Origin: Myxococcota bacterium
GTDB lineage: Bacteria; Myxococcota_A; SURF-8
Length of the DNA stretch: 64,000 bases
NCBI GenBank assembly: GCA_963674735.2
Contig: CAXXQS010000002.1
Location: 224,001-288,000 of the forward strand
Reading direction: 5' to 3'
Of this stretch, positions 4,157-62,636 are shown in pieces (the first letter of the stretch is position 1; each line of letters starts with the position of its first letter). The position numbers were made by a program, and so were the translations under genes. The notes under the pieces were generated by a model. That model was not told where the DNA came from. It searched no databases and was given only the letters and a program-made list of their open reading frames with translations.

Positions 4157-7100
4157 ATGATCGACTCAAAGCGCCATAAAGATACGTCCTACAAAGCCGT
4201 GTGGAATTGGTTCCGATATTTCATCAAATACTTCATCCCCGGCATGATCTTGGTTTCCCTTTTCCTCTACCTGGCGTTTTTCGTTCTTTTTCCACTTATC
4301 GAATCGACCAGCATCCAAAAAAAGCGCGAGATGATTCAAAATCAGGTTTCAATCGTTTATTCGATCGTGAATCATTACCACACGCGTTCCCAACAGGGGA
4401 AATTAAGCGAAGAAGAAGCGAAAAAAACGGCGATGGAGACGGTTCGAGTTCTTCGTTATGGGGCTGACAAGCGTGACTATTTTTGGATCAACGACATGAA
4501 CGGCGTCATGTTGATGCATCCCTACCGACCAAACCTCGAAAACCGGAACCTCCTTGAAATGCAGGACAAGGGCGGTAAAAAGCTATTCCGTGAATTCGTA
4601 AATGTGGCAAAAATGAAGGGAGATGGCTTCGTTGATTATTATTGGCAACACAACGACGATGCCAGCTTCATAACGAAAAAAATCTCTTATATCAGCCGAT
4701 TTGAGCCCTGGGACTGGGTTATCGGGACCGGGGTTTACATCGAGGATGTCAAAGCCGAATTGTCTATTTTAACATCCAAAATATTGAGCTACCTGTATTT
4801 CAGCATCTTTATGACGATAGCGATTTCACTATTCACAAGCATCCAAACGCTGCGATTACAGAAAAGGCGCGACGAGTATCAAGAACAAATTATCGAAATG
4901 GAACAATGGTACCGCGCCATTCTCCTCCACATCGATGAAGGAATCGTAGTCTGCAATCTTTCCGAACAGATTCTATTTATGAACGCCAAAGCAAAATCCC
5001 TCCTCGGTGTCAACGAGCAAGACACAGGCGACAAGAAATTGAACGATCTCTTCTCGATAACGACTAACGAGGGCGATAAGACGGTGGTTTTGCCGGTCGG
5101 CGAAATGAAAACGGTCGAACGAAAATACATCGTAGCTCGTCGAAAAACGAGCCGTGGCGATTTGAGTTACCTCGCGTTCAACCTGGCTCGATTGGACGCC
5201 GACCTTTTCGGTACGGAAATGGTCATCATTGCCATAAGCAACGTCACAAATCAAACGAGTGTAATGCTTGAAACGGAGGAATATGCAAAGCAATTGGATT
5301 CCATCATCGAATCCAGAACGGAACAGCTGGTTAAAGCCAACAACGACCTGAAGCTTGCCCAGCTTGCCATCAATTCCGCCGCAGACGGCATTTCATTCAT
5401 CGATGCCACAGGAAGCGTCATTTCCGCCAACGACGCCGAAGAAACCATTTTAGGGATCCCAACCGAAACGATCGTGGGTTCGATACATCCCGCGATTCAA
5501 CAGGCCCTCTCCACAGAGGAAAGTATCGCGTCCAGCCTATCCAATAGCAGCGTATGGCGAGGATCGATCACATACAAACAAAAAGACAAGGAAGACAAGC
5601 CGCTGGAACTGACCCTGACCCCGATTCCGAAACGAATCGGGGATCGGCAGACCTTCATGCTCATCGAAAAAGACGTTACCGAAAAGCGCCGGCAGGAGGA
5701 ATCGCTTTACAGACTAAAGGCCGCCTTCGAACAATCGCTGGACGGAGTAGCCATATTGGATATGGAAATGAAAATACTGTTCGCCAATCAAGCGTGGGCC
5801 GTCCTCCATAACCAACAATCCGACTCCCTCATCGGTCAAGATTACCGGAGCTTTCATACCGACGAAGAAAATGAATCGGAGATGTGCGTCTTTTTTGATG
5901 AATTGCACAAAAAGGGAAATGCAACCGGGGAAATCACCCTCCGGGGCCAGGATGGTCACGATATACCGACAAGCAGCACCGCCACCATTATCTATAACTC
6001 AGAAATGAAACCCAGCGCCATACTGGTTATCACAAAAGACGTGCGAGAACAAAAAGAATACGAAGCGGCCCTTAAACAATCCGAATTGAAATTTCGAAGC
6101 TTATTCGACTACTCCAGCGACGCTATTTTTATCCTTGAAGATGGGCAGATCGTTGATTGTAACAATAAATCCTTGGAAATGTTTCGAGTCGATTCCCATG
6201 AAAGTATGCTCGAATATTCCGTAGAAGATCTATCCTTCCCCTATCAGATTGGAGAAGAACCGGCATCCATTAAAAAGACTGAACATATCGAAGCGGCCAT
6301 TCGGAATGGAAACGAAAGCTTTGAGTGGTCTCACCGTCGGACAAACGGAGAAGTTTTTCAAGCCGATGTCCATTTGAGCCCTATTCGGATCGGCGATCGA
6401 GTTTTTGTCCAGGGAGTCATTCGTGATTTGACGGAAAAACACCGGATGGAAATGGAGCTGCGGCAGGCTCAGAAGCTCGAATCCATCGGTCAGCTTGCAG
6501 CCGGAATCGCGCACGAGATCAACACGCCGATTCAATTCATCGGCGATAGCATCTTTTACCTCGAAGATGCATGTAAGGATGTAACAAACCTGGTCGCGAG
6601 ATATAAAGGCCTTCTGGGAAATGTTGACGACGCAGAAGAAAGAAAAGCCATACGGGAGCTTGAAGAAGAAATCGATGAAGACTGCGATCTGGAATTTCAT
6701 ACCGAAGAAACGCCGAATGCGTTTGAGCGTATCAAACGCGGGACCGACCGTGTCACGGCCATCGTTCGAGCTATGAAAGAGTTCGCGCACCCCGATTCTT
6801 CCGAAATGGAATTTTCCGACCTCAATCGTCTCATCGAAACGACAGTGACGGTCGCTACAAACGAGTTTAAATACGTGGCGGAATTGAAACTCGAACTCAA
6901 CGAGGTCCCGCAGGTCTACTGTCATCGCGGAGAAATCAACCAGGTGTTGATCAACCTCATTGTCAATGCAGCGCATAGTATCAAAGACAAGAGTGAAACA
7001 TCCGATGGGATGGGGCTCATCAGGATCCGCACGGAAGAGATCGACGGTTTCGTGCAAGTCTTAATTTCAGACACGGGAATGGGAATCCCGGAAGGAATCC

Positions 7101-7279
7101 AGGAACGTATTTTCGATCCGTTTTTCACCACCAAGAAAGTGGGCGTGGGAAGCGGTCAGGGGTTGGCGATCAGTCGAAACCTCATCGTTGAAAAGCACAA
7201 AGGGAAGCTTTTTTTCACAACCAAGAAGAACGAAGGAACCACATTCCACATTCATCTCCCGTTGGAGAAATCACCATGA
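4157..7279 (+). CDS. Membrane sensor histidine kinase (single Cache_2, about 4 PAS, HisKA, HATPase)
   Basis: TM-Cache (YFWIND, MLMHP, WDWVIGTGVY)-TM; PAS repeats; H-box LAAGIAHEINTP; NLIVNA, DTGMG, FDPFFTTK, GSGQGL. Confidence 0.95.
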   Translation: MIDSKRHKDTSYKAVWNWFRYFIKYFIPGMILVSLFLYLAFFVLFPLIESTSIQKKREMIQNQVSIVYSIVNHYHTRSQQGKLSEEEAKKTAMETVRVLRYGADKRDYFWINDMNGVMLMHPYRPNLENRNLLEMQDKGGKKLFREFVNVAKMKGDGFVDYYWQHNDDASFITKKISYISRFEPWDWVIGTGVYIEDVKAELSILTSKILSYLYFSIFMTIAISLFTSIQTLRLQKRRDEYQEQIIEMEQWYRAILLHIDEGIVVCNLSEQILFMNAKAKSLLGVNEQDTGDKKLNDLFSITTNEGDKTVVLPVGEMKTVERKYIVARRKTSRGDLSYLAFNLARLDADLFGTEMVIIAISNVTNQTSVMLETEEYAKQLDSIIESRTEQLVKANNDLKLAQLAINSAADGISFIDATGSVISANDAEETILGIPTETIVGSIHPAIQQALSTEESIASSLSNSSVWRGSITYKQKDKEDKPLELTLTPIPKRIGDRQTFMLIEKDVTEKRRQEESLYRLKAAFEQSLDGVAILDMEMKILFANQAWAVLHNQQSDSLIGQDYRSFHTDEENESEMCVFFDELHKKGNATGEITLRGQDGHDIPTSSTATIIYNSEMKPSAILVITKDVREQKEYEAALKQSELKFRSLFDYSSDAIFILEDGQIVDCNNKSLEMFRVDSHESMLEYSVEDLSFPYQIGEEPASIKKTEHIEAAIRNGNESFEWSHRRTNGEVFQADVHLSPIRIGDRVFVQGVIRDLTEKHRMEMELRQAQKLESIGQLAAGIAHEINTPIQFIGDSIFYLEDACKDVTNLVARYKGLLGNVDDAEERKAIRELEEEIDEDCDLEFHTEETPNAFERIKRGTDRVTAIVRAMKEFAHPDSSEMEFSDLNRLIETTVTVATNEFKYVAELKLELNEVPQVYCHRGEINQVLINLIVNAAHSIKDKSETSDGMGLIRIRTEEIDGFVQVLISDTGMGIPEGIQERIFDPFFTTKKVGVGSGQGLAISRNLIVEKHKGKLFFTTKKNEGTTFHIHLPLEKSP

Positions 7280-8490
7280 CGGAAAAGCCGCAGATCCTTT
7301 TTGTTGATGACGAAAAGGGAATTCTGGATAGTATCAAAGTCGTTTTACGCAAATACCGGAAAATTTGGGAAGTTTTACTGGCTTCCAGCATGGAGGAAGC
7401 GCTGGAAATCGTTGAATCGAATAACATCGATATTCTCATTTCCGATTTCCGTATGCCGGGAAAATCCGGACTCGATCTTCTTGAACTGATACGGAAAGAT
7501 CATCCGAATATTATTCGTATCATTCTTACGGGACAAATAGAGACGGAACAAACCATCAGGTCCATCTCCACCGCGCAGCAATTTATCAGCAAGCCAATCC
7601 GCTCCGACGAGCTCACCTCGATCCTCGAACGTAATGTCGCGTTACTTAAGTACGTTGACAATCCTTATCTGAAAAAATCGATCGGGTTTATCGGAAATCT
7701 ACCATCCAAGACAAGCACCTACAACAAATTAACATATCTGCTTGGAAAACCGACGGCCACGATAACGGATATGGCTTCCGTCGTTGAACACGATCTGGCC
7801 ATAACGGCCAAAATCCTGCAAATTATCAACTCCTCCTTTTTCGGTTTGGTCAAAGAAGTCACCAATATCAAAACGGCCGTTACACTTCTTGGAGAAAATG
7901 TTCTTCGCAGTATCGTTCTCAGCGAAGAAGTGAAGAAAGTCCTCGGTACGGAGAAATTTCCAGACGGCTGGTCGATGAATGCGCTGCATGAGCACAGTAT
8001 AAGATCGGCGATTATGGCTTCTAAAATTGCCCGAACCCCTGCTGAAAAAGAACAGGCTTTCATTTCAGGTTTCTTGCACGATTTCGGCATTCTTATCATC
8101 GCCTGCAAGTTCCCGGACTTGTTCAAAGAGCATGACCAATTATCGAAAAAGCGCTCCTGTCCGATAAGCGATGTTGAATACGAAAAATTCGGAATATCGC
8201 ATGCCGAGATCGGCGCTTACATGTTGGGACTTTGGGGACTGCCCTTTGATATTATCGAAGCCATTGCTCACCACCACACCATCATGAACTACCCGATGGA
8301 AGAGCTAGGCCTGGTCGATTTGGTCTTTTTGGCGGATATCGCATCCAAAGTTTCTGCCGATGATCCCGGTTGGGAAAACGTTTTTGATGAGCGGTACGAA
8401 GAACGATTGAAAAAGCTATCGAATAAGGACGAAGCAATTATCGCAATTGATAAGCTTAAAAGCATCATCAGCCATGGAGTTTCCGAATGA
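7276..8490 (+). CDS. Response regulator, REC + HDOD
   Basis: VDDE/SDFRMP receiver; HDOD motifs DLAITAKILQIINSSFF, LHDFG, WGLP; ATGA overlap with the kinase. Confidence 0.92.
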   Translation: MTEKPQILFVDDEKGILDSIKVVLRKYRKIWEVLLASSMEEALEIVESNNIDILISDFRMPGKSGLDLLELIRKDHPNIIRIILTGQIETEQTIRSISTAQQFISKPIRSDELTSILERNVALLKYVDNPYLKKSIGFIGNLPSKTSTYNKLTYLLGKPTATITDMASVVEHDLAITAKILQIINSSFFGLVKEVTNIKTAVTLLGENVLRSIVLSEEVKKVLGTEKFPDGWSMNALHEHSIRSAIMASKIARTPAEKEQAFISGFLHDFGILIIACKFPDLFKEHDQLSKKRSCPISDVEYEKFGISHAEIGAYMLGLWGLPFDIIEAIAHHHTIMNYPMEELGLVDLVFLADIASKVSADDPGWENVFDERYEERLKKLSNKDEAIIAIDKLKSIISHGVSE

Positions 8491-9632
8491 AAACAACCAA
8501 GCTGGAGGTTTTGTGTGTCGATGATGAAATCGAGGTTCTCAATGGACTGAGAATGATCCTGCGTCGAAACTACAACGTTACCGTGACCGAAAGTGCGCAC
8601 CAGGCCCTGGAGTACTTGAAAACCGAAAAATACAGCATCATCCTATCGGATATGCGCATGCCGGAAATGAACGGGGCGGACTTCTTGGCCAAGGCGAAAC
8701 GAATTTCGCCGAATAGCGTCCGCATGCTGCTCACCGGCTATAGTGACCTGAACGCCGCGATCGATGCGATCAACAAAGGTCAGGTTTATCGATTTTTGAC
8801 AAAGCCCTGTCCGCCGGATCAACTGTTGAATATTTTCGATGATGCCGCCCATCAATACTCATTGATCACCGCCGAAAAGGAATTGCTGCATAAGACCTTA
8901 AAAGGCAGCGTGACGGTTCTGGCTGAAATTCTTTCGATTGTCGACCCGGAAACAGCGGACGCCGTATCCGGGCTGCGTTCGGTCCTGGTCAGCATCGCCA
9001 AGGAACTGGAGTATGCCAAGCAATGGGATCTGGAAATAGCCTATCTCATTTCCAGTATCGGTATCGTAACGATTCCATCGGAGTTGCGCCAGAAAGCGAA
9101 ATCGAATGAAGCGCTGACTGAGGATGAAGCCGATCTTATAGGTCGTGTTCCGGAGATCGGAGCCAAGCTGATTTCTCACATTCCCCGCATGGAAACGGTA
9201 GCCGAGATTGTGCGGTATCAAGCGAAAAATTTCGATGGATCGGGCTTCCCGCGCGACTCCGTAAGAGGAGACAAGATTCCTCTCGGGTCGAGAATCCTGC
9301 GTATTCTTAAAGACTACGATTTGGCGGAGAACATTCAAAAAACGGATGAGTGGTACAAACGGCTTAAAACAGATGAGACTACATACGATCCGGATGTAGT
9401 GAAGGTCTTTATTAAATATGCCAATCTTCTACCCACAAGTTTTGAACTCGTTGAGATCGATCCAAGACGCCTGCGCACTGGGGATCGCTTGATAGATCCC
9501 GTTACAACCGACAAAGGAAGGCTTCTTCTCGCTGCCGGAATGCGAATCAATCAACCCATACTGGAAAAATTGCACCATTACGCGTCGATCGTCGAACTAC
9601 AGGGACAAGTCAGGGTTGAACGCCCCAAATAG
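8487..9632 (+). CDS. Response regulator, REC + degenerate HD-GYP-like domain
   Basis: SDMRMP receiver; HD replaced by SS (SSIG); YQAKNFDGSGFP in place of HHExxDGxGYP. Confidence 0.9.
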   Translation: MKTTKLEVLCVDDEIEVLNGLRMILRRNYNVTVTESAHQALEYLKTEKYSIILSDMRMPEMNGADFLAKAKRISPNSVRMLLTGYSDLNAAIDAINKGQVYRFLTKPCPPDQLLNIFDDAAHQYSLITAEKELLHKTLKGSVTVLAEILSIVDPETADAVSGLRSVLVSIAKELEYAKQWDLEIAYLISSIGIVTIPSELRQKAKSNEALTEDEADLIGRVPEIGAKLISHIPRMETVAEIVRYQAKNFDGSGFPRDSVRGDKIPLGSRILRILKDYDLAENIQKTDEWYKRLKTDETTYDPDVVKVFIKYANLLPTSFELVEIDPRRLRTGDRLIDPVTTDKGRLLLAAGMRINQPILEKLHHYASIVELQGQVRVERPK

Positions 9633-9672
9633 AGAATGGCGAGCGTACTAAACCGAGATTTAGGAAACATGA

Positions 9673-10767
9673 ATGACCATCACAGCTAACATCGTTTTTG
9701 TCGATGACGATAACGAAATTCTTGATTCCATCAAAGTCATGCTCCGCAAGCAAACAAACTTCTGGAATATCGAGTATTTCAATGATCCCCTGGCCGCACT
9801 TGAGCGCATCAGGCACGGAGACGTCGATATCGTGGTCTCAGACATGTCGATGCCGGGAAAATCGGGATTGGATTTATTGCACGAAATCAAGAAGGATGAG
9901 GCGTCAAAATATAGCGCGGTCATCATCCTTACCGGACTCAATGATCGGAGCCTGAAGCGGGAAGCGCTGGCTGCCGGGGCGGCAGACCTGCTCAATAAGC
10001 CCATCGTCTTGGAAGATTTGCTGGCTCGGCTTGTCAATACCTTGAAAATGAAGCGCTACGAAGACGATCTTCGCGACAGCAACCTCACGCTTGATAATAT
10101 GGTAAGGGTGCGGACACTGCAACTGGAACAGTCCCGAATCGCCACGGTCATACACCTTGCCAAGGCAGGGGAATATCGAGATGAGGAAACCGGAAAACAT
10201 ATCATTCGAGTCGGCAGTTATGCGCGTTGTATTTGCGAACGCCTTGGAATGGAAAAGACGGACTGTGATGTGGTGGCGGTGGCGGCCCCCTTGCATGACA
10301 TTGGAAAAATCGGTATTCCCGACCGTATCCTTCTTAACCCGGGCAAGCTCGATGCCGAGGAATGGAAGATCATGCGTACCCATACTCAAATCGGATACAA
10401 CATATTGAACACCAATTTGATCAACATGGAACGGCTCATTCCCGATATGAAATGGAAAGACGGCGACATGTTCGATTATTATCCCGTCATTAATGCCGCT
10501 TCGGAAATCGCATTGAATCATCACGAGCGCTTGGATGGCAAGGGCTACCCCAATGGTTTAAGGGGCACGGCTATTCCCCGTAAAGCCGTCATCGTCGCCA
10601 TCAGCGACATGTACGATGCCTTAAGAAGTGAAAGACCCTACAAAAAGGGATTTTCCCATCAAAAAGCCATGGAAATCATTGCGGAAGACACGGGACATTT
10701 CGACCCGGAAGTTTGTGAGGCTTTTTTCGATCTTTCAGACGAAATCAGTTTCTTGTTTGACCTGTAA
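9673..10767 (+). CDS. Response regulator, REC + HD-GYP cyclic di-GMP phosphodiesterase (RpfG-like)
   Basis: EYRDEETGKH, HDIGK, HHERLDGKGYP and RPYK motifs intact. Confidence 0.93.
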   Translation: MTITANIVFVDDDNEILDSIKVMLRKQTNFWNIEYFNDPLAALERIRHGDVDIVVSDMSMPGKSGLDLLHEIKKDEASKYSAVIILTGLNDRSLKREALAAGAADLLNKPIVLEDLLARLVNTLKMKRYEDDLRDSNLTLDNMVRVRTLQLEQSRIATVIHLAKAGEYRDEETGKHIIRVGSYARCICERLGMEKTDCDVVAVAAPLHDIGKIGIPDRILLNPGKLDAEEWKIMRTHTQIGYNILNTNLINMERLIPDMKWKDGDMFDYYPVINAASEIALNHHERLDGKGYPNGLRGTAIPRKAVIVAISDMYDALRSERPYKKGFSHQKAMEIIAEDTGHFDPEVCEAFFDLSDEISFLFDL

Positions 10768-11380: not shown

Positions 11381-11826
11381 GTCATCCTCCGCTTTTCGGG
11401 TTCCAACAGCCGATCCACCGGCACATTTCACCCCCTGAAACGTCACGGTTACATCTGCGACCGGCTTCTATCGCCCTGTAGTTTGTCTTGATGCAAATAG
11501 ATTAGCATAAATTATAGAACTATTCCATGTTTTAAAGTGCGATATAAATAAAAGCAGGTCGAATGATCGCCCTCGCCCGCCGGGAGCCGTCGGTCCGTCT
11601 TCGGCGCAGATGCAACACAGACGATTGCCGAGAACCCTTCAAGATGGGTGGTATGGGCTAAGCGAAGAGAACGGAGCTTGCCTTTGCCACCCCAAAACCA
11701 AACGGGTTGCCATATCCTGTGCTGCACCCATTCCGAATCCCGTATATGCTAAGTCCTTGAGAAACAAGCCGAAACCTGCTAGGCTGAGAGCCGTTTAGAC
11801 AGCCCAATACGGCAAAAAGGGACGGT

Positions 11827-12642
11827 ATGAACCACATCGCGATTTACGGCAAGGGCGGCAGCGGAAAATCGATGATCGCCAGCAATCTTTCGGTCCAGTT
11901 CGCTCGACTGGGACTGGCCACTACGCAAATCGGTTGCGACCCCAAACACGACTCCACCTTATGCCTGACCGGTGGACGCGCCATCCCTACCGTTATTTCA
12001 CTCATGGAGAAAAGTCGCGACCTGCTACCGCCCATCGAGCAGGTGGTGGTCGAAGGCGTGCACGGCATCCGCTGCATCGAGGCGGGCGGTCCGGAACCGG
12101 GGGTCGGCTGCGCCGGGCGCGGCATTGTTTCGGTTTTCCAGATTCTCAAGCGCCATCACTACCTCGACGACTTCGAGGCGGTGGTCTTGGACGTTCTGGG
12201 CGACGTGGTCTGCGGCGGCTTCGCCGCTCCGCTGATGCACGGTTTCGCCAGCCGGGTGCTGATCGTGGTGAGCGACAACCTGATGTCGCTTTACGCCGCC
12301 AACAACATAGCCAAGGCCGTGCGACGCTTCACGCGCAACGGTGCACGCCTGGTGGGTCTGGTGGGCAACAACCTGCACGACCCCGACGCCGAAGCCATGC
12401 TCACACGCTTCGCCGAGCGGCTGTCCACCCGGCTTTTAACCATCGTCCCCCACGATCCGTTGATCTTCGACGCCGAGCGTCGACGGCTGACCGTCTCGGA
12501 TCACGCTCCCGATTCCGCCAGCGCATCTCGTTTCCGCGAGTTGGCCCAGGAAATACGCAATCAAGATACCGTCGAACATGCAACTCCAACCCCCATGGAC
12601 GACGAAGAGCGCGAAAGCTTCTTCCGTGAACAGGGACGGTAA
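11827..12642 (+). CDS. Nitrogenase iron protein-like ATPase (NifH/BchL/BchX/CfbC family)
   Basis: YGKGGSGKS, GCDPKHDST, EAGGPEPGVGCAGRG, DVLGDVVCGGFAAP, LYAANNI; both [4Fe-4S] Cys present. Confidence 0.95.
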   Translation: MNHIAIYGKGGSGKSMIASNLSVQFARLGLATTQIGCDPKHDSTLCLTGGRAIPTVISLMEKSRDLLPPIEQVVVEGVHGIRCIEAGGPEPGVGCAGRGIVSVFQILKRHHYLDDFEAVVLDVLGDVVCGGFAAPLMHGFASRVLIVVSDNLMSLYAANNIAKAVRRFTRNGARLVGLVGNNLHDPDAEAMLTRFAERLSTRLLTIVPHDPLIFDAERRRLTVSDHAPDSASASRFRELAQEIRNQDTVEHATPTPMDDEERESFFREQGR

Positions 12643-12649
12643 GGCGGCC

Positions 12650-14758
12650 ATGGCTTCCCCGCAACGACGCGATCCCATTCCCTTGCTCGAACGCTTCGCG
12701 CTATTGGCGCAGGAACTGGAGGCGCGCGCGGTCTTTCCACAGGCCGACGGGGCACTTTTCATCTTGGTTCGTGAAACCGAACCCAAGGCCTGGTTGCGTT
12801 GGGAACCCGATGCCGACCACAACGATCCCCGCTTGGACGAATTGCCGGGACGCCTGCACAGCGCCCAACTGACACCGGCGGCGGTCGCCAAACTGGCGGC
12901 GCGCCTCGTGCACGCCGCAAAAAAAGACGCTTTCCGCTTTCTGCGCGTTGCCCATGAAGCCGAGATCCCCATCGAACTCAACCGCTGGTTTGTCGCGCGT
13001 CACCTCACCCATTATCTGGAGGAAGGCATAAGCCGGTGGGGCCCCTATCGGCTGGAACCGGTGAAAGAGGTGGGCGACGCTATCGAATTGGTCTTTTCCT
13101 CGATCGACGGAGAAACACCCCCGTTACACTTCTCCATCAGTGCATCAGAATCCGACCCCGTCGAGAAAACCGGCGCTTCAGCGGCTGCAAGTCCGCTCAC
13201 GTTACGGTGTTTGGCCGAGGATTCCGACGACGCCTCTTTTTCGCGTTCCCCCGAGCGCTACCTGCGTTACGCCCTGGCACGCAGCTTCGTTCCGGGCCAG
13301 GCCCTGCATCGTCCGACAGACGATTCCGGCCCCGAAAACGAAACCGAGAAACCGGCCTCGCCTTACAACCAGGGTTTTTTAGCCCCCGACCACCGGGATT
13401 ACATTCCGATGACCTGCTTTTTCGCCCTGAAAAAAGATCCCGGAGTGATGGATATCCTATCGAGCTTAAGCGACGACGGCTTACACCTGCGCACGCTTCA
13501 CGTGGGCAGCACGGCCTGTCTGCTGGCTCCGACCGTGGACATCCGCGACGACCGGCGCTTTGTTTCCGCCCGCTTCATGGGAAGCAGCTTCAAACCCGAC
13601 CCGGTGATGGATGCGGTCGAAATGGGCGAAATCGATGTCATCGTGGGCGACGACGCGAGCTTGAGACGCAGCCTGGAGACGCTCATCGATCTTCCCGACA
13701 TCCACGCGGTGGTCTTGATTGTGCAGTGCCTGGCCGATTTCGTCGGTTTGGATCTCGACAACATCGTGGCTGAAGCAACGGCCGCAGGTGCTCCACCCAT
13801 CATCCGTTACACCGACACCCCCGCCATCCAGCGCGAGCCATACGACCGCTTCTGGCACGAAATCTTGCAGTTGGCCGACCCCAACCTCGCACCCGACCCG
13901 AAACAAGTCAACCTGGTCGGGTTCGCCCCGCGTGGGTCCAGGGCGGATAGGGAATTGACCGCCGATCTGGCCGCATTGAACCTTACGGTCAACGCCCGCT
14001 TCATCCCCTCGCTGAAAGCCGCCGAGATACGACGCTTCGGATCGGCCGCACTCAACGTTCTGTTCAACGAGCGCATCACTCGCGATGAAATCGGCGCTCC
14101 CCTCGACGCCTACGCCGCCGCAAGCGGTCGGGACATCCTCGCACCGGTTCCCCCCATCGGTCCCGACGCGACCCAGACTTTTTACCGCGCCATTCTCACC
14201 GCCTGCGATCTGCCCGACGACGGCCGGGTCGCCGCGCTCTGGGAGCCGTTCAAAGCCGACTGGGAAAAAGGCCGCGCGAGCGCCGCACAGCACGAAATCG
14301 CCATCATCGTGGACGCGCATACCTCCCGCTACTTGCGCGAACCGGACGAACTGTACGGCATTCCACTCCCGGTACGCTTGGCGGAAATGGGCTTTGCTTT
14401 GCGTCTGGTGCTGGCCGAATGGGAGGATGCAGGCAGCTATCGCGACGCCGAGTTCGCGCTCGAATCCCTGCGGGACACCCTCCTGCAAGCAGGCGCGGAT
14501 GTGATACTCGACCGGGTGGCCGGGCCCGATGAACTGGCGGCACGCATGCGCGACTGGCCCGCCAGCCTGATCTTCAGCGATTTCCCCGGCGATCGCCGCA
14601 TCGTGGCCGCCGGTAAAACGCCTTTCTCCATCCGCGCCTTCGAGTTCGGTTTTGCCGGTGCTCTGCGCAGCCAACGCCACCTGCTGCGTCTGGCGCATAG
14701 CGGCTACGCTCGGGCTTTTGGTCCGCTTGCGCTTTCCCGAAACGAGGAGACGCCATGA
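12650..14758 (+). CDS. Nitrogenase component-1-like subunit (NifD/E, BchN/Y-like) with a long N-terminal extension
   Basis: LHVGSTAC, MGEIDVIVGDD, VQCLADFVGLD, VNLVGF, FGFAGA resemble oxidoreductase/nitrogenase component-1 motifs; start chosen at ATG 12650, just after the Fe-protein stop. Confidence 0.8.
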   Translation: MASPQRRDPIPLLERFALLAQELEARAVFPQADGALFILVRETEPKAWLRWEPDADHNDPRLDELPGRLHSAQLTPAAVAKLAARLVHAAKKDAFRFLRVAHEAEIPIELNRWFVARHLTHYLEEGISRWGPYRLEPVKEVGDAIELVFSSIDGETPPLHFSISASESDPVEKTGASAAASPLTLRCLAEDSDDASFSRSPERYLRYALARSFVPGQALHRPTDDSGPENETEKPASPYNQGFLAPDHRDYIPMTCFFALKKDPGVMDILSSLSDDGLHLRTLHVGSTACLLAPTVDIRDDRRFVSARFMGSSFKPDPVMDAVEMGEIDVIVGDDASLRRSLETLIDLPDIHAVVLIVQCLADFVGLDLDNIVAEATAAGAPPIIRYTDTPAIQREPYDRFWHEILQLADPNLAPDPKQVNLVGFAPRGSRADRELTADLAALNLTVNARFIPSLKAAEIRRFGSAALNVLFNERITRDEIGAPLDAYAAASGRDILAPVPPIGPDATQTFYRAILTACDLPDDGRVAALWEPFKADWEKGRASAAQHEIAIIVDAHTSRYLREPDELYGIPLPVRLAEMGFALRLVLAEWEDAGSYRDAEFALESLRDTLLQAGADVILDRVAGPDELAARMRDWPASLIFSDFPGDRRIVAAGKTPFSIRAFEFGFAGALRSQRHLLRLAHSGYARAFGPLALSRNEETP

Positions 14759-16053
14759 AGCTGACTCCCAGCTATCTCGACGGCGCGTATCTCGCCCTCA
14801 ACGCGCAACCGGGCCTGCGGGCATTTGTCGATGCGCCGCGCTGCGAGGTCAACCGCGCCGACAAGATCACCACCTTACATGATCGCATGAGCGACTTACT
14901 GGGTATGGGGCCCTACGACCTCAGCCGCCGCCTGTTCACCGGAACCTGGCGCTTCGGCTTGGACATCCAGGGACCCGACGAAGCCATTGCCCGCACCCTC
15001 AAGCATTTGGCCGGCGCCGACCCGCACAGTCCGATTCTGCTCTTTCGCGGACACCTGTCGCTGTTAATCAACACCGACCTCGACGGAGTCGCGCTTGAAA
15101 GCCTGGATACCGAAAAGACTCCGCCCCTGATTTCCGTGGCACACCATTCGCTCGACGACGACTGGCTCACCGGCTACCGGGCCGTCCACGACGCCGTTTT
15201 GGACTGGATGCTTCGCAACGCCTCACCCACCCCGCCAGCCGGACCGCCCCGTCCCTTGATCGGCGGTTTCGGGCTCTTGCGTCGGGAAGGGGACGAACAC
15301 GGCAACGTGGACGAGGTTCTGCGTCTGTGGCGGGCGCTCGGGCTGGAGACAGACCCGATATGGCCTTTTTCCGGCGGACCGCTCGATTCAGCCGGATTGA
15401 CCTCCGACTCGCCCCGTTTCATCTTCCCCTACAGCGGCGATTATCAAGCTCATCGTACAGCAAACGACGACGGGACCGACACGCATCTGCCCTTCCCCAT
15501 CGGCTTGTCGGCCACGGCTGCTTTGCTGCGCGGGCTAGGCAAACGTTTCGGACGCGAAACCGAAGCCGAGTCGCTGATTGCGCGGGAAACCGAAACCCTG
15601 CGGCAAGCCATCGAAACCACGGCCGTCGAGCGGCTGGCCGGACGCGGGGTCGCCGTCTTGGCCGATCCCACGCGCGCCATCGGACTTTGTGCGGCCATGC
15701 GGGATCTGGGGCTGACGGTCCCGCTCGTGTTGAGCCTGGGTGCCATCGAAGCGGACGAAGCCGAGAATGCTTTCGGCGATGCGACGGTTCTGATCAATCC
15801 CAGTTTTTCGGACGCCGTCGCGCAACTCAAAACCGCCGCCGCAACCGGGGAACTGGACTGGGTGGTGGGAGCCAGCTGGCTCCGCGATCCGGCCCGCGAG
15901 GCGGGTCTGGCCTATGTGGAATGCGGCTACCCCGCTTACACCGAACATTTTATCGGTCCCATGCCATACATGGGATACGCGGGACTTTTACGCCTGGCCG
16001 AACGTCTGGCCAACAGCCAGAGCGGCCTCCTCGATCCAAACGGGAACGCTTGA
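14755..16053 (+). CDS. Second nitrogenase component-1-like subunit (NifK/N, BchB/Z-like)
   Basis: GAYLALNAQPGLRAFVDAPRCE, LINTDLDG, FPIGLSAT, VECGYP, PYMGYAG; ATGA overlap with the previous gene; GAGGAG RBS. Confidence 0.85.
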   Translation: MKLTPSYLDGAYLALNAQPGLRAFVDAPRCEVNRADKITTLHDRMSDLLGMGPYDLSRRLFTGTWRFGLDIQGPDEAIARTLKHLAGADPHSPILLFRGHLSLLINTDLDGVALESLDTEKTPPLISVAHHSLDDDWLTGYRAVHDAVLDWMLRNASPTPPAGPPRPLIGGFGLLRREGDEHGNVDEVLRLWRALGLETDPIWPFSGGPLDSAGLTSDSPRFIFPYSGDYQAHRTANDDGTDTHLPFPIGLSATAALLRGLGKRFGRETEAESLIARETETLRQAIETTAVERLAGRGVAVLADPTRAIGLCAAMRDLGLTVPLVLSLGAIEADEAENAFGDATVLINPSFSDAVAQLKTAAATGELDWVVGASWLRDPAREAGLAYVECGYPAYTEHFIGPMPYMGYAGLLRLAERLANSQSGLLDPNGNA

Positions 16054-16066
16054 TGGAGAAGGTATC

Positions 16067-16801
16067 GTGACGGAAACCCCGCTTCCGGTCGAGGAAGTCA
16101 GCGATTACGAACGTGAAGCCCATGACTTCGCCCATCGTCACCTGGCCTTGCCCTGGCGCGCTCTGGTGGCACGGCTATCGCGTCTGGAAGCCGGTGAATC
16201 GCTCCGGGAGGACGAAGCACGCTTCGAGGTGATCGGGTGGCCCCGCCCGCTTTCGGCACATCGCTTCCACCGGGCCATGCGCTCCGGTTCCTGCCGTCGC
16301 TTGTTCGGTCCCAATCCCACGCGCCTGCTGGTGGTGCTCAACCACAAACGCACACGTGTTTTGCATGTCCTGGCCGACCGCAACGAAAACGGCGTTTTCG
16401 TCGAGCACGTCAGTCTGCGTTCGCGAAAAGAAGAACCTTGGGCAGGTGAACTGCTGCGCTTCATCCGCGAGGGACGTCCCGAGCTGGCCCAGCGTCTGGC
16501 GACCGACTGGTTGCCCGAACAGCCCGAAACCCGCGACTGGAAACTCGGCCTGCTGATCGTCACCAACTGGGATTGCTTTATGCTGCTGAAAAAGGCCTGG
16601 GACAAGGCCGGGGACGGCAAGATAACGGCTCTCCCTTTTTGGCTGATGGAAGCCCTGGTCAAAATGGAGCAGAGCGGGGCTTTACAGATCGAGCCGCCGG
16701 TGCCGGTGGAGCGCTTGCGACGCCGCCTGACGCCGCTTTTGCGCCTGCTGCTTCCCTCCATTCGTCTCAGTGGCTACGCCGCCCGCCTGTGGCCGCTTTA
16801 A
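16067..16801 (+). CDS. Hypothetical protein, fourth gene of the nitrogenase-like operon
   Basis: GTG at 16067 with GGAG RBS, 13 bp after the previous stop; native codon usage; no recognisable family. Confidence 0.7.
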   Translation: MTETPLPVEEVSDYEREAHDFAHRHLALPWRALVARLSRLEAGESLREDEARFEVIGWPRPLSAHRFHRAMRSGSCRRLFGPNPTRLLVVLNHKRTRVLHVLADRNENGVFVEHVSLRSRKEEPWAGELLRFIREGRPELAQRLATDWLPEQPETRDWKLGLLIVTNWDCFMLLKKAWDKAGDGKITALPFWLMEALVKMEQSGALQIEPPVPVERLRRRLTPLLRLLLPSIRLSGYAARLWPL

Positions 16802-16856: not shown

Positions 16857-16882
16857 AAAAAACCCCGCCGAAAACGACGGGG
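16857..16882 (-). terminator. Rho-independent terminator
   Basis: CCCCG stem followed by T6 on the minus strand after the DUF1015 gene. Confidence 0.6.
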
Positions 16883-16938
16883 CGTGTCAGAAACCAGATC
16901 ACCGACACGAAGTCGGTGGGTCGAGCTTGTCAAATCGC

Positions 16939-23107: not shown

Positions 23108-26100
23108 CTATTCGGTAACGTTAAAGGCCACCGGCGCCGTGGTACTCTCCGATTCAGGCTCGTAATAGGGAGCCGCAGAGGCCGAGCCGGAACTGCCCTC
23201 CATGGGGAAACGAGCTCGCAACTGGTAGGTGAGAGACAAGGTCTCCCCGGCGGCGATGCGCTCCACATAGAGAATGAGCTGCCGTCCGGCCACTTCATAG
23301 CGTTGCAGCGCCGTATTTTGCACCTGCTCCACCAGATCGTCGGGCACCAGATCAAAGCCCGGCGGCAAGCCGATATCCACCAGCACCATCAGGACATTGG
23401 CGTCCGAGACGTTGCCGATGGCGGCCGTGGCGGTCACGATATCATCCACGGCCAGAGTGGTTTTATCGTAGCTGATGTCGATGGTGAGCGGACCGCCCGA
23501 ACCGTAAGGGTTCTCCTCGCCCGGCACCCAGTAACTCGATACGACCGAGTACATCAAGTTGCCTTCGCCACTGACCACCAGCTCAACCGCATTATCGCCT
23601 TCCACCAGGAATTCACTCAGATCGACATACTGCATCACCTCGGAGTTGTTGGCATCGACCGTCACCGTACCGCCCAGACTGCCGTTGGCATTGACGATGA
23701 TGGTGGCGTTTGATTCCTCAACCTGCGATCCCAGCGAAGCAATCATGAAACGTAGAGCCTGAATAGTACCGGCTGTTGTAGACCAATTGCCGAAACTGTC
23801 TTTTTTCGACAGCAGCCAGTCCATGATACCCGGCACCAGGTTGGTGTTCTGACCGGCACGGATGAAAGCCTGCCCCACGAGGCCGGTCGTTTCCATTTCG
23901 GCCGAACCACCCGAGCCATACATCTCGGTTTGCTCTTCCTGAGTCCAATAGATTTTGCCGTCCTCGTCCTCGACACGGGCTTCGTACAGGTCATCGAGGA
24001 CCGAGTCGAGTGCGGAATTGTCGGGATCGGCGGCCGTCAGCATCATGGCAAGAAGCGCCAGAGTGTAATTGTCGCCCGCCGCCTCGGAGCGGTTCTGTAC
24101 CGCCCAGTTGACACCCGCCGACACCGCGCCCCCGCTGAACCCGCTTTCGGCCAGGGCGTAGGTGATGTAAGCGGTGGTGCGCAGTTTGGACGATGTAAAG
24201 TTGTTGGTCGCGCCTTCGTGGATGCCGCCCGCGTCGAAGTCGTAGGAACCATCGCCGTTTTGCAGCGCCGCCAACCAATTTTGGGTACGTGTGATGATGG
24301 CCTCGTCCACGTCGTGGACCTTGCTCATGTCGCTGAATTCCAGCAACCCATAAGCGGTGAGGATGCGGTGGGCCGGAGTTTCACCGAACCACTCGAAACC
24401 GCCGCCGTCCACTTCATACGATACCAGCCGCTGATAGCCCTGACTGACATAGTCGCGCGCTTTCAACTCGATTTCGGGCGTGCTCTGGCCGGTCAGCGCC
24501 ATGTAATCGAGCACCAGCACGTTGGGGTAGGTGGCGGAGCTGGTCTGTTCGAAACAGCCCGAGGGCATCTGCAAGAGGCTATCAAGGCCTTCGATCATCT
24601 GGGAGAACAGGCCGGGGTAGATCTTCACCCACATACGCGAGGCATCGTCCACGGCCAGTTCAGGAATATTGACGGTGATGCTTTTCGATCCGTCGAGTCG
24701 TCCCGATTCGGCGTTACGCACTTCCAAACCATCGGGAATGACTTCAACCCGACGGCGAATGGCGTCACTCATCTCGCTGCCAATGGCGGTGACGGTAAAG
24801 TCGTGCCAACCCACCTTGACCACCTTGACCGGGAAATAGATACCGGTAACGGAACTGGGACCGACGGTGATGGAGCGGGTCTGACCTTCGAGGAATTCGA
24901 TCCAGTCGCCTGCCGCCGCCTCTAAATTGATGGTCTGAGGAGATTGCAGATAGTTGTAGATCGCGATGGGCACGGCCACAATGTCGTTTTGCGTCAGAGT
25001 GGCGGGAAAGTCGATGTCGACGAAAAAGTCCTGGTAAACGATCACATTGCCCACGTTCGAGCCGATCTGGCCCGCCAGTGAACTGGCCAAGGCGGTCATA
25101 CGCCAACTGGTGATCGAGTCGGCCATGGTGAAGTTGATTTCGGCTTCCCCGCTCGCATCGGTGATGACGGCCGGGTTGACGTAAAGCGTTTCAGGGAAGT
25201 AGGAACGCACGCGCGGACCGTCCTCTTCTTCACCGTCATCGCTGGAGGGCTGAGCGTCGCCGTCGGGCGCATCACCATCGGCCATGTCACCATCGCCGAT
25301 GCCTTCGCCCGGGGCGTTGGGTTCGCCGTCGAGGGCATCATCGTCAAAACCGCCCTCGCCATCCCATTCGTCGCGTCCGTCACCTTTAGCGTAAAAGTCC
25401 TTGCTGACTTCCAAGTCGTCGGCAGAACCTTTCCGTTCATCCATCCCGTTGGAACGCAGGGTCAGCCGATATTCGCCGTATTCCATCGTATAAGCGTGGC
25501 CCCAGGGATCATAGAGTGGATTGGAACCACTATTGCGCTGCTCGATCCAGGCCTTGATGCCCTGTTCGCCGGTGATGAAGCCCGAATCATACAGCCAGTT
25601 CAGATGGTCGATAACCGCCTGCAGATCCTCTGAAACGCGCGTGGTGGCCGTGGCCTGCGCAGTGGAATCCACGTTGGCGAAGGTATCCACATTGACTCCG
25701 TAAGCGGCATCGGTACCGGCGGAAGCCAAGAAGGCACCGGCATACGCCTCACGTTCTTCCGCCTCATCGGAATTTTCGGGTTCCGGTTCGAGAATGTCGG
25801 CGGCATCGAAGCCGTGAATCTCGTAGCGTGGCGCAAGCAATTCCTCTTCCAACTCGAAATAGATTTTCTCCATGCCCGGTTTCATGTCCTGCAGGGCGAA
25901 GACGGCCTCGTCCACCACCTGCACGCCCAATACCGACTGCACGCCGTTTTGTTCGTTGTCTTTCACACGCAGGCTGATGGTGGCGTCTTCGGCGGGGAGA
26001 TAGGTGCTTTTGTCGGGAATGATCTCGACCGTCAGCGAGTTGGCCAGTTCAACGAAGATCAACTTGCGGTCGCGAATGATCTCACCGGCCGCGCCGAGAT

Positions 26101-58457: not shown

Positions 58458-62636
<4,179 letters not shown>

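Follow-up and report, generated by a model that had tools for sequence, protein, structure and literature searches.

Group VI of the nitrogenase-like (NFL) proteins has been reported from 22 Elusimicrobia, 2 Gracilibacteria and 14 Myxococcales genomes, together with radical S-adenosylmethionine (SAM) genes that number from 0 to 13 per locus, up to 13 in Elusimicrobia (Meheust et al., 10.1101/765248). The D and K subunits of the group are described as very divergent, with at most four of the six P-cluster cysteines, no ligands of the iron-molybdenum cofactor (FeMo-co) and no NifB (PMC13474568, 10.1101/765248), and a 2026 review, in the portions used here, describes it as the single major branch of the nitrogenase superfamily that lacks a characterised member (PMC13474568); these two sources, and PMC11423573 cited below, are drawn on in part. 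Here we describe a four-gene operon that resembles this group, found in the genome of a Myxococcota bacterium (GenBank GCA_963674735.2), on a stretch of 64,000 nucleotides of contig CAXXQS010000002.1 (C2 below; positions 224,001 to 288,000) that we call the window. The operon probably encodes a two-component reductase of the group VI type, driven by ATP, holding one [4Fe-4S] cluster at the subunit interface and acting on an organic substrate other than N2 that is linked to radical-SAM chemistry. Judging from the sequence, it is very unlikely that the enzyme fixes N2.

Placement of the operon among nitrogenase-like systems

A first reading of this DNA (the original prediction) had seen four closely linked genes for an Fe protein, two highly divergent component-1 subunits and a protein of no recognised kind, and our data agree with that description. 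The coordinates of the open reading frames (ORFs) give intergenic gaps of 7, -4 and 13 bp for a four-gene operon on the forward strand (11827-16801 of the window), and searches with hidden Markov models (HMMs) return one PF00142 protein and two PF00148 proteins, gene 4 falling into no family (Table 1). We call the products H (the Fe protein, NflH), D' (gene 2), K' (gene 3) and X (gene 4).

The evidence for placing the operon comes from its component-1 subunits. We built a tree of 53 component-1 cores with a quick IQ-TREE run under the C20 mixture, labelling the references by NCBIfam score or gene context. All 14 D' sequences form one clade (Shimodaira-Hasegawa-like approximate likelihood ratio test, SH-aLRT, 100), as do all 14 K' sequences (SH-aLRT 99), and the sequences of Elusimicrobia RBG_16_66_12 nest within both. 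Outside these two clades lie NifD/E, NifK/N, the D and K subunits of the alternative nitrogenases, BchN/ChlN/BchY, BchB/ChlB/BchZ and six group IV subunits of Rhodopseudomonas. A D' HMM made from 31 full-length sequences was applied to every ORF in 80 NifH-bearing loci of named organisms. It gave 389 bits on a Myxococcales contig, 243 on one unclassified bacterium and, in Elusimicrobia RBG_16_66_12, 332 and 209 for two ORFs, and no more than 118 bits on any other PF00148 ORF of these loci (Nif, group IV and methanogen Cfb-type). As placed by tree and HMM, D' and K' belong to the published group VI clade, that is, to an already described kind and not to a new enzyme type. The operon was originally set apart from the clade of NifH paralogs of Elusimicrobia and Myxococcales; that separation falls, since D' and K' nest with the Elusimicrobia paralogs in a group that has been reported in Myxococcales (10.1101/765248). 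Other traits of group VI are also found here, namely the nucleotide motifs and both cluster cysteines of the Fe protein, a reduced set of P-cluster cysteines and a genome in which nifB was not found. Specialists would recognise the operon as group VI, a known but uncharacterised kind, and as a sequence finding alone it holds no surprise; what it adds is a compact H-D'-K' case from a genome with three sets of paralogs.

D' and K' are far from every curated model. On any NifD/K/E, BchN/B/Z or Vnf/Anf model of NCBIfam, D' scores about 14 bits at most and K' no more than 31 bits. For the single Bch models the figures are 14.1 bits against a cut-off of 419.95 (BchN), 29.8 against 490.35 (BchB) and 14 against 529 (BchZ), with no match to BchY, and the nifD, nifK, anfK and vnfK models each give 31 bits or less on the operon proteins. 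A profile of the three D' paralogs of the genome (see below) matched, among 1.84 billion representative sequences, 1467 at E<=1e-3, 667 at E<=1e-10 and 334 at E<=1e-30, and the nearest relative of the window D' is only 35% identical. A word-index search with D' returned D' alone, owing to its divergence and to the word filter (the full HMMER scan being the one that gave the 1467 relatives). A search for related loci with K' alone found none, and one with an alignment of Fe proteins did find such loci. Within the same phylum, Myxococcota, 64 of the 401 sampled genomes have a D' family match at E<=1e-20, the weakest of which (about 1e-22 to 1e-30, family f12) are probably other PF00148 proteins.

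The Fe protein likewise misses every NCBIfam cut-off: CfbC, its top-scoring model, gives 284.6 bits against 402, NifH 277.7 against 394.35, BchL 195.9 against 345.15 and BchX 190 against 331.2. Its P-loop (GKGGSGKS), switch I (CDPKHDS), Cys95 and switch II (DVLGDVVCGGF, which includes Cys129) are intact, all of them aligning with columns that do not vary among 10 Fe proteins of the family, and Cys95 and Cys129 would bridge a [4Fe-4S] cluster in the Fe-protein homodimer. In a tree of 52 rows made with a careful method, the window protein and one relative (from locus L045, 53% identical; support 100/99) form a deep branch of their own, outside the set of Nif and group IV (86/99) and outside group V (87/59), and the Fe protein of the second NFL locus of this genome (paralog B, below) lies inside a 15-row clade with Elusimicrobia copies (97/96). 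The phylogeny called for at the outset had two outcomes: D' and K' fall in supported clades apart from Nif, Bch/Chl and group IV, and the Fe protein sits on a deep branch that is compatible with more than one position. It is because of D' and K', and not of H, that we file the operon under group VI.

The host genome (5.26 Mb in 3 contigs, nearly closed and 94% complete) has six PF00148 matches, which make up three D'K' pairs, and two strong PF00142 matches. Pair A is the window operon, pair B (C1:1576938-1581329) has its own Fe protein gene and pair C (C2:756998-760380) has none. The D' proteins are 31% (A-C) and 24% (A-B) identical, the K' proteins 40% and 30%, and the two Fe proteins 42%, as befits old paralogs. 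The operon is hence not stand-alone, as it had been called: beside it the genome encodes two further D'K' pairs and another NifH-like protein, and close homologs of the radical-SAM genes that flank its nearest ortholog lie on the same contig. On the other hand, the reported lack of nifB, nifE, nifN, bch, chl, cfb and radical-SAM genes in the window is borne out, given that all six PF00148 proteins are D' or K' and that none of the 70 genome matches to PF04055 (radical SAM) falls in C2:224001-288000. The same searches extended the point to the whole genome, where the top nifB (TIGR01290) score is 22.6 bits, the cut-off being 343.65, and where no genes of the dark-operative protochlorophyllide oxidoreductase (DPOR) or of the chlorophyllide oxidoreductase (COR) were found among the PF00148 matches. 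By these measures, the 94%-complete genome has no canonical nitrogenase, DPOR or COR, and the operon, which misses every Nif, Bch and Cfb cut-off, is not a member of any CHARACTERISED system.

Conserved cysteines and comparison with characterised reductases

Three suitably spaced cysteines of D' (C256, C290 and C360) and a single one of K' (C30, in VDAPRCE) had been singled out as ligands of a three-plus-one cluster. Two of the D' residues stand, C290 (13517-13519) and C360 (13727-13729), each of them Cys in 117 of 119 family members; C256 (13415-13417) does not, being Cys in 4 of 119 and so lineage-specific, and the ligation as first proposed leaned partly on it. K' C30 (14842-14844) also stands, with Cys in 26 of 28 K' sequences and a Cys shifted by 1-2 places in the remaining two. 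The sole other D' column with at least 30% Cys is position 682 (66 of 119), which is Ala in the window D', and K' C312 and C390 are Cys in 1 of 28 sequences each, the window K' itself. Of the six P-cluster positions the family thus keeps three (D' C290, D' C360 and K' C30), and there is no further conserved Cys column, therefore no cofactor-ligand Cys.

HMM alignments to solved chains put the C360 region of D' on a conserved, Cys-bearing stretch of MarD (PDB 9D9U) and the C30 region of K' on the GPIAC stretch of NifE (9I0G). We take D' C290 (tentatively), D' C360 and K' C30 to be the equivalents of NifD Cys88, NifD Cys154 and NifK Cys95, in a numbering that is partly that of PMC13474568. On the K side, the position of NifK Cys95 is that of the Asp ligand of BchB and of the Cys ligand of BchZ (PMC13474568). 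The three conserved cysteines suggest a single [4Fe-4S] cluster per D'/K' interface with a fourth ligand that is not Cys. Among the invariant residues of K' are D43, R59, R176 and D180, and D368, E579, D648, R650, E665 and R673 are conserved in D'; all ten are candidates for ligation or catalysis. The assignment to nitrogenase-like reductases with a substrate other than N2, which was made from the start, is upheld by the three of six P-cluster cysteines, the lack of a cofactor-ligand Cys, the failure to find nifB, the equivalog cut-offs that are all missed and the intact motifs of the Fe protein.

The nitrogenases proper (NifHDK, VnfHDGK and AnfHDGK) have six P-cluster cysteines, whereas this operon has the three conserved in its family and the non-conserved C256; of the cofactor ligands NifD Cys275 and His442, the Cys has no counterpart among the D' columns with at least 30% Cys, save possibly the one that is Ala in the window D'; nifB was not found; and in the tree the NifD/E and NifK/N clades include neither D' nor K'. 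DPOR is a closer parallel, as a two-component ATP-driven reductase, and the operon probably shares with it a single interface [4Fe-4S] cluster with an asymmetric set of ligands that are not all Cys. However, the ligands of DPOR are three Cys from the N subunit and one Asp from the B subunit, while the operon would use two Cys from D' and one Cys from K' at the position of the BchB Asp, and its proteins score far below the BchL, BchN and BchB cut-offs and fall in separate clades. With COR the operon has in common the K' Cys, which sits at the reported position of the BchZ ligand Cys. It differs in that BchX and BchZ stay below their cut-offs and BchY gives no match, that BchY groups with BchN and BchZ with BchB, and that the ligands of COR are three plus one.

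CfbCD resembles the operon in two respects: CfbC is the best model for the Fe protein, and CfbD has two Cys per monomer (Cys39 and Cys94 in M. barkeri; PMC13474568), the same number and order as in D'. Nevertheless, CfbD is a homodimer without a K subunit (two plus two Cys), and the operon has a distinct K' with a single Cys and an Fe protein that scores under the CfbC cut-off of 402. In the 53-core tree a candidate CfbD joins D' without support (70, weak). Among solved chains, MarD (PDB 9D9U/9FMG) of the group IV-C methylthio-alkane reductase MarHDK comes closest to the D' profile (E 6.8e-26), but Mar retains both a P-cluster and a cofactor resembling the L-cluster, and it depends on MarB or NifB. 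The group IV-F isethionate reductase IsrHDK also has a radical-SAM partner (PMC11423573), but it keeps NifD Cys88 and NifK Cys70, Cys95 and Cys153 (one plus three; PMC13474568), and the operon has the proposed equivalents of C88 and C154 in D' and of C95 in K'. The six Rhodopseudomonas references that represent group IV D and K outside our clades are labelled by context and score.

The likeness is greatest to group VI itself, in the Cys and nucleotide motifs of the Fe protein, the divergent D and K subunits with a partial set of P-cluster Cys, the several copies per genome and the lack of NifB and of FeMo-co ligands, as well as in the radical-SAM and B12-radical-SAM neighbours, which were seen in loci related to the operon. 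What sets the window operon apart from the group as described is that it has no radical-SAM gene in 64 kb and its candidates 1.3 Mb away, that its Fe protein is a separate deep branch, and that it includes a D' N-terminal domain of 245 aa and an orphan fourth gene.

Radical-SAM context, fusions and the proposed reaction

For the gene context of the family we took 20 related loci, which come from 16 Myxococcota genomes, and collected the ORFs within 4.5 kb of the NFL genes that had coding-like GC and no more than 1100 aa, which left 105 ORFs. Fourteen of them are radical-SAM proteins (PF04055), six of these with a B12-binding domain, and no other family occurs more than three times. Four radical-SAM ORFs lie upstream of the NFL copy of Elusimicrobia RBG_16_66_12. 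H-D'-K' of the nearest ortholog locus (L045, genome G046) is transcribed divergently from a flank with three radical-SAM genes and one gene for a protein of 779 aa of no recognised function. Host homologs of these flank genes are grouped at C2:1560431-1569074, about 1.3 Mb from the window on the same contig, and comprise a 760-aa protein of no recognised function (26% identity) and, at C2:1562973-1565377, a radical-SAM protein of 328 aa (59%) and a B12-radical-SAM protein of 472 aa (64%). The opposite strand of this block carries genes for a DegT-type aminotransferase, an LPG_synthase_TM protein and a third radical-SAM protein. An ortholog of the B12-radical-SAM protein (52% identity) also abuts an NFL Fe-protein gene in a second genome, a groundwater metagenome-assembled genome (L072). 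Orthologs with at least 47% identity occur in 16 of 401 genomes, and D' is present in 12 of these 16 as against 52 of the other 385. Homologs of the 760-aa protein are found in 5 of 401 genomes, all five with D', but they belong to D'-rich families and the genes are not syntenic, and we give this no weight. The partner radical-SAM proteins reach no curated NCBIfam cut-off, the nearest models being NirJ/AhbC/AhbD, PqqE and MoaA and, for the B12 type, HpnJ, BzaD, ApyD and BchE.

Some recurrent clusters of short or antisense ORFs beside D' (clusters 2, 3, 5, 7 and 8) turned out to be shadow frames of D', K' and H and were discarded. The host genome also has a radical-SAM array at C1:1874064-1879075, five matches in 5 kb with no NFL gene alongside, one of which shares 31% identity with a radical-SAM protein encoded beside the nearest NFL ortholog.

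D' extends 200-250 residues beyond the PF00148 core on its N-terminal side, and residues 1-245 align across all three paralogs of the genome and 12 further loci. A profile of this N-domain matches 62 of the 150 best family representatives, 124 of which have at least 560 aa. The AlphaFold2 model of the domain, from an alignment of 15 rows, is a two-lobed alpha+beta structure (predicted local distance difference test, pLDDT, 80.2; predicted template modelling score, pTM, 0.77). No Cys or His is conserved within it. Foldseek against the PDB found nothing at E<=0.001 (best 1.6e-2, TM 0.23), VIA-align against 48,161 chains gave a best Z of 5.6 (SPLUNC1, 82 residues, root-mean-square deviation 3.5), under the noise guide of 7-8, and the ESM Atlas had no usable match. 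With hhalign, the N-domain profile gave 0.3% against the N-terminal part of the Elusimicrobia D', which is a NifH-like domain, and 0.8% against that of a short-form D'. A degenerate NifH origin of the domain was considered and rejected: the model is mainly an antiparallel sheet with helices, and there is no NifH, MinD or ParA among the listed fold matches. The domain is a family-specific add-on that may bind the substrate or a partner.

Natural fusions also bear on the partners of D'. A Pfam scan of ten family proteins, picked as unusually long or short, showed a NifH-like domain joined to PF00148 in four (an ORF of Elusimicrobia RBG_16_66_12, P0044, P0099 and P0056, the last with the N-domain sandwiched between the NifH-like domain and the D' core) and a radical-SAM domain joined to PF00148 in two (P0055, 976 aa, radical SAM N-terminal; P0128, 1161 aa, radical SAM C-terminal). 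By HMM, 6 of the 150 best representatives have a NifH-like domain. Single ORFs with a complete NifH-like domain and a D' core were noted in Elusimicrobia RBG_16_66_12 (L070 13783-16086), P0044, P0056, P0099, P0100, P0120 and P0130. The NifH-D' ORFs look like natural fusions of Fe protein and catalytic subunit, P0055 and P0128 are by their domain make-up Rosetta-stone links between both enzyme types, and together the two sorts of fusion argue for a physical assembly of H, D' and a radical-SAM enzyme. Neither the N-domain nor the fusions are mentioned for group VI in the parts of PMC13474568 used here ('N-terminal extension', 0 matches) or in the main text of 10.1101/765248, where 'fused' and 'fusion' appear only for B12 domains and a hydrogenase; this check covered these two texts and is not a full literature search.

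We propose the following scheme. D' and K' would form a heterotetramer, (D'K')2, served by H2. Each D'/K' interface would hold one [4Fe-4S] cluster, bound by three Cys and one non-Cys ligand, and there would be neither a P-cluster nor a cofactor of the FeMo-co type. ATP hydrolysis by the Fe protein would push low-potential electrons one at a time through the interface cluster into an organic substrate in D'K'. The substrate would not be N2 but, most likely, a metabolite that is also handled by radical-SAM and B12-radical-SAM enzymes, a link that we propose because radical SAM is the only recurrent neighbour of the family and is sometimes fused to D'. The partner genes would be dispersed in the host genome, the nearest candidates being those of the block 1.3 Mb away. 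If found, the substrate would establish a new reduction powered by ATP in secondary or cofactor metabolism under anaerobic or microaerobic conditions, and the operon offers experimental handles for the search: three cysteines, a separable N-domain, the NifH-D' and radical-SAM-D' fusions and a candidate partner block in the genome.

Several points weigh against this scheme. Cluster type, stoichiometry, ATP dependence and substrate are what we infer from sequence comparisons, and the fourth cluster ligand has candidates but no assigned residue. No radical-SAM gene lies within the 64-kb window, and the co-occurrence of the B12-radical-SAM protein with D' is confounded by relatedness, with genes that are mostly not adjacent, and is suggestive only. 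The placement has its own weak points. The use of the Elusimicrobia genome as a reference for group VI follows from its taxon, copy number and radical-SAM context, the main text of 10.1101/765248 not naming it; the tree of D and K subunits was made with a quick method on very divergent sequences; and the window Fe protein lies on a deep branch of the 52-row tree for which approximately unbiased (AU) tests allow both a position with the Elusimicrobia-containing clade (p 0.183) and one with Nif and group IV (p 0.217).

As to the nature of the substrate, a tentative idea, to which we give limited credence, is that the D' family acts on a non-tetrapyrrole compound (a lipid, a sugar-lipid or something peptide-like) in a physical complex with radical-SAM enzymes, the N-domain binding or presenting the substrate or partner and the ATP-driven reduction, at very low potential, being one step of a radical-SAM tailoring pathway. 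We arrive at it from four hints: the radical-SAM-D' and NifH-D' fusions, radical SAM as the sole recurrent neighbour, the aminotransferase and LPG_synthase_TM genes beside the host block, and a likeness of the N-domain, weak and sub-threshold (best Z 5.6), to wrap folds that bind lipids. If true, this would give nitrogenase-like enzymes a new class of reaction.

The literature's own proposal for group VI, a tetrapyrrole reductase in which D'K' would reduce a C=C bond of a porphyrinoid and the radical-SAM enzymes would tailor the same macrocycle into a cofactor, seems to us rather doubtful for this operon. It has precedent on its side, since DPOR, COR and CfbCD, the three NFL systems with a simple [4Fe-4S] cluster, all reduce tetrapyrroles (PMC13474568), and the K' Cys sits where BchZ has its Cys and BchB its Asp. 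Among the sub-threshold models that come nearest to the partner radical-SAM proteins are NirJ, AhbC/AhbD and BchE, but none reaches its curated cut-off and HpnJ, BzaD, ApyD, PqqE and MoaA are equally near. Also in its favour, the window Fe protein falls outside the clade of Nif and group IV and near group V, without support, and the genome combines a gene of the CobN/Mg-chelatase family with just two matches to TP_methylase, hence lacking a complete cobalamin pathway. Against it, neither D' nor K' is sister to the BchN/Y or BchB/Z subunits in the tree, and the 25 commonest Pfam families of the 105 neighbour ORFs include none of a tetrapyrrole pathway. The DegT-type aminotransferase and LPG_synthase_TM genes beside the host block would point, if anything, to sugar or lipid chemistry. 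The match to the CobN/Mg-chelatase-family gene (C1:1171329-1174558) is split into two parts, the second of which contains a TGA.

A further way to account for the radical-SAM genes is that they encode maturases like NifB or NflB and that D'K' holds a novel complex metallocluster. Radical-SAM proteins do partner Nif, Mar and Isr (NifB, MarB and NflB, respectively; PMC13474568, PMC11423573), and radical-SAM domains are fused to the D' cores of P0055 and P0128. Nevertheless, we consider this improbable. With only two conserved Cys columns in D' and one in K', and with Ala here in the column that is Cys in 66 of 119, a second cluster would be left without evident ligands, and the genome search did not recover nifB. 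B12-binding domains are present in six of the 14 radical-SAM ORFs near NFL genes, and radical-SAM proteins with such domains are typical of methyl transfer to organic substrates. The number of radical-SAM genes, up to 13 per Elusimicrobia locus (10.1101/765248), is also beyond the need for a maturase.

That the operon is a decayed or non-catalytic paralog, one of three redundant copies kept as a regulator or relic, is hardly credible, for although its divergence is extreme (35% identity to the nearest D' relative in about 15 billion proteins), locus C has no Fe protein gene of its own and gene 4 is an orphan, all reading frames are intact and translationally coupled, every Fe-protein motif and all three family-conserved Cys are retained, and each of the four genes shows the GC by codon position of coding DNA. 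An ATP-driven reductase of an organic, radical-SAM-linked substrate is thus the reading that we prefer.

Operon layout, gene 4 and flanking genes

The features of the operon region are given in Table 1.

Table 1. The operon and adjoining features, in window positions
Feature	Position	Strand	Family match or remark
NFL Fe protein (NifH-like, NflH; H), 271 aa	11827-12642	+	PF00142 at 3.6e-81
D', 702 aa, ATG start	12650-14758	+	PF00148 at 3.5e-20, residues 308-654 only
D' N-terminal alpha+beta domain, residues 1-245	12650-13384	+	No Pfam/NCBIfam match
D' component-1-like core (NifD/BchN-like position), residues 246-702	13385-14758	+	PF00148
K' (NifK/BchB-like position), 432 aa	14755-16053	+	PF00148 at 7.5e-34
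Gene 4 (X), 244 aa, GTG start	16067-16801	+	No Pfam or NCBIfam family
Presumed promoter/leader of the operon, 380-bp intergenic	11447-11826	+	No + strand ORF of at least 80 aa
GC-rich hairpin, terminator-like, 9 pairs then T-run	16862-16883	-	Between the operon and a convergent DUF1015 gene

The stop of D' and the start of K' overlap by 4 bp, and the GTG of gene 4 lies 13 bp past the K' stop with GGAGAAGG ahead of it. An alternative start of D', an in-frame ATG at 12578, was rejected, as both the alignments of homologs and the database gene caller favour 12650. The four genes have similar, coding-like GC by codon position (0.71/0.46/0.72 in gene 4), and the terminator-like hairpin is 61 bp past the gene 4 stop. 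In the leader, an Rfam scan found no family at its gathering score (the sole row was STnc430, 25.3 bits against 47), a sigma-70 pattern scan gave nothing above chance, and a sigma-54 pattern scan gave no site on the forward strand and nothing above chance.

Gene 4 is probably a lineage-specific orphan. A tblastn search of its own genome found only itself (next match E 0.81), and it is absent from the 20 related loci. A word-index search of 5.8 billion proteins also returned gene 4 alone among 4205 candidates, a search limited by the word filter and by divergence, and the best ESM Atlas match (0.78) is below the usable range. AlphaFold2 of gene 4 alone gave a pLDDT of 39.6. From its distribution, gene 4 is not a conserved or core component of the system.

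The ten flanking genes that were scanned encode a Cache/PAS histidine kinase, three response regulators (HDOD or HD), DUF1015, MarR-like and TPR proteins, GyrA and two proteins of no recognised family, and they yield no pathway clue. The kinase (1040 aa) and the three tandem response regulators (HDOD, HD_5 or HD) form a block directly upstream of the operon (4157-10767). The block has a GC content of 0.46-0.48, with 0.56-0.59 at third codon positions (GC3), against 0.62-0.64 and 0.72-0.75 in the operon, and is also below gyrA. Similar kinases also flank the paralog locus B, and these features could reflect a separate origin or a regulatory link. Farther along the window there are two very long ORFs on the reverse strand, 23108-28027 (1639 aa) and 58458-62636 (1392 aa).

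About 3 kb from locus B, at C1:1584560-1589707 (L165 3564-8708), there are a ferredoxin-reductase-type protein (FAD_binding_6, NAD_binding_1 and the 2Fe-2S domain Fer2), an amine-oxidase/CrtI-like flavoprotein, a pyridoxal-phosphate decarboxylase-like protein and a TetR-like ORF. The ferredoxin-reductase-type protein could be an electron donor, and a gene of the amine-oxidase family recurs near two other NFL loci. Within 6 kb of locus C lies a gene for a PMT_2/ArnT-like membrane glycosyltransferase (C2:750711-752891; L166 3714-5891), a type that is likewise found within 6 kb of the NFL loci L060 and L061.

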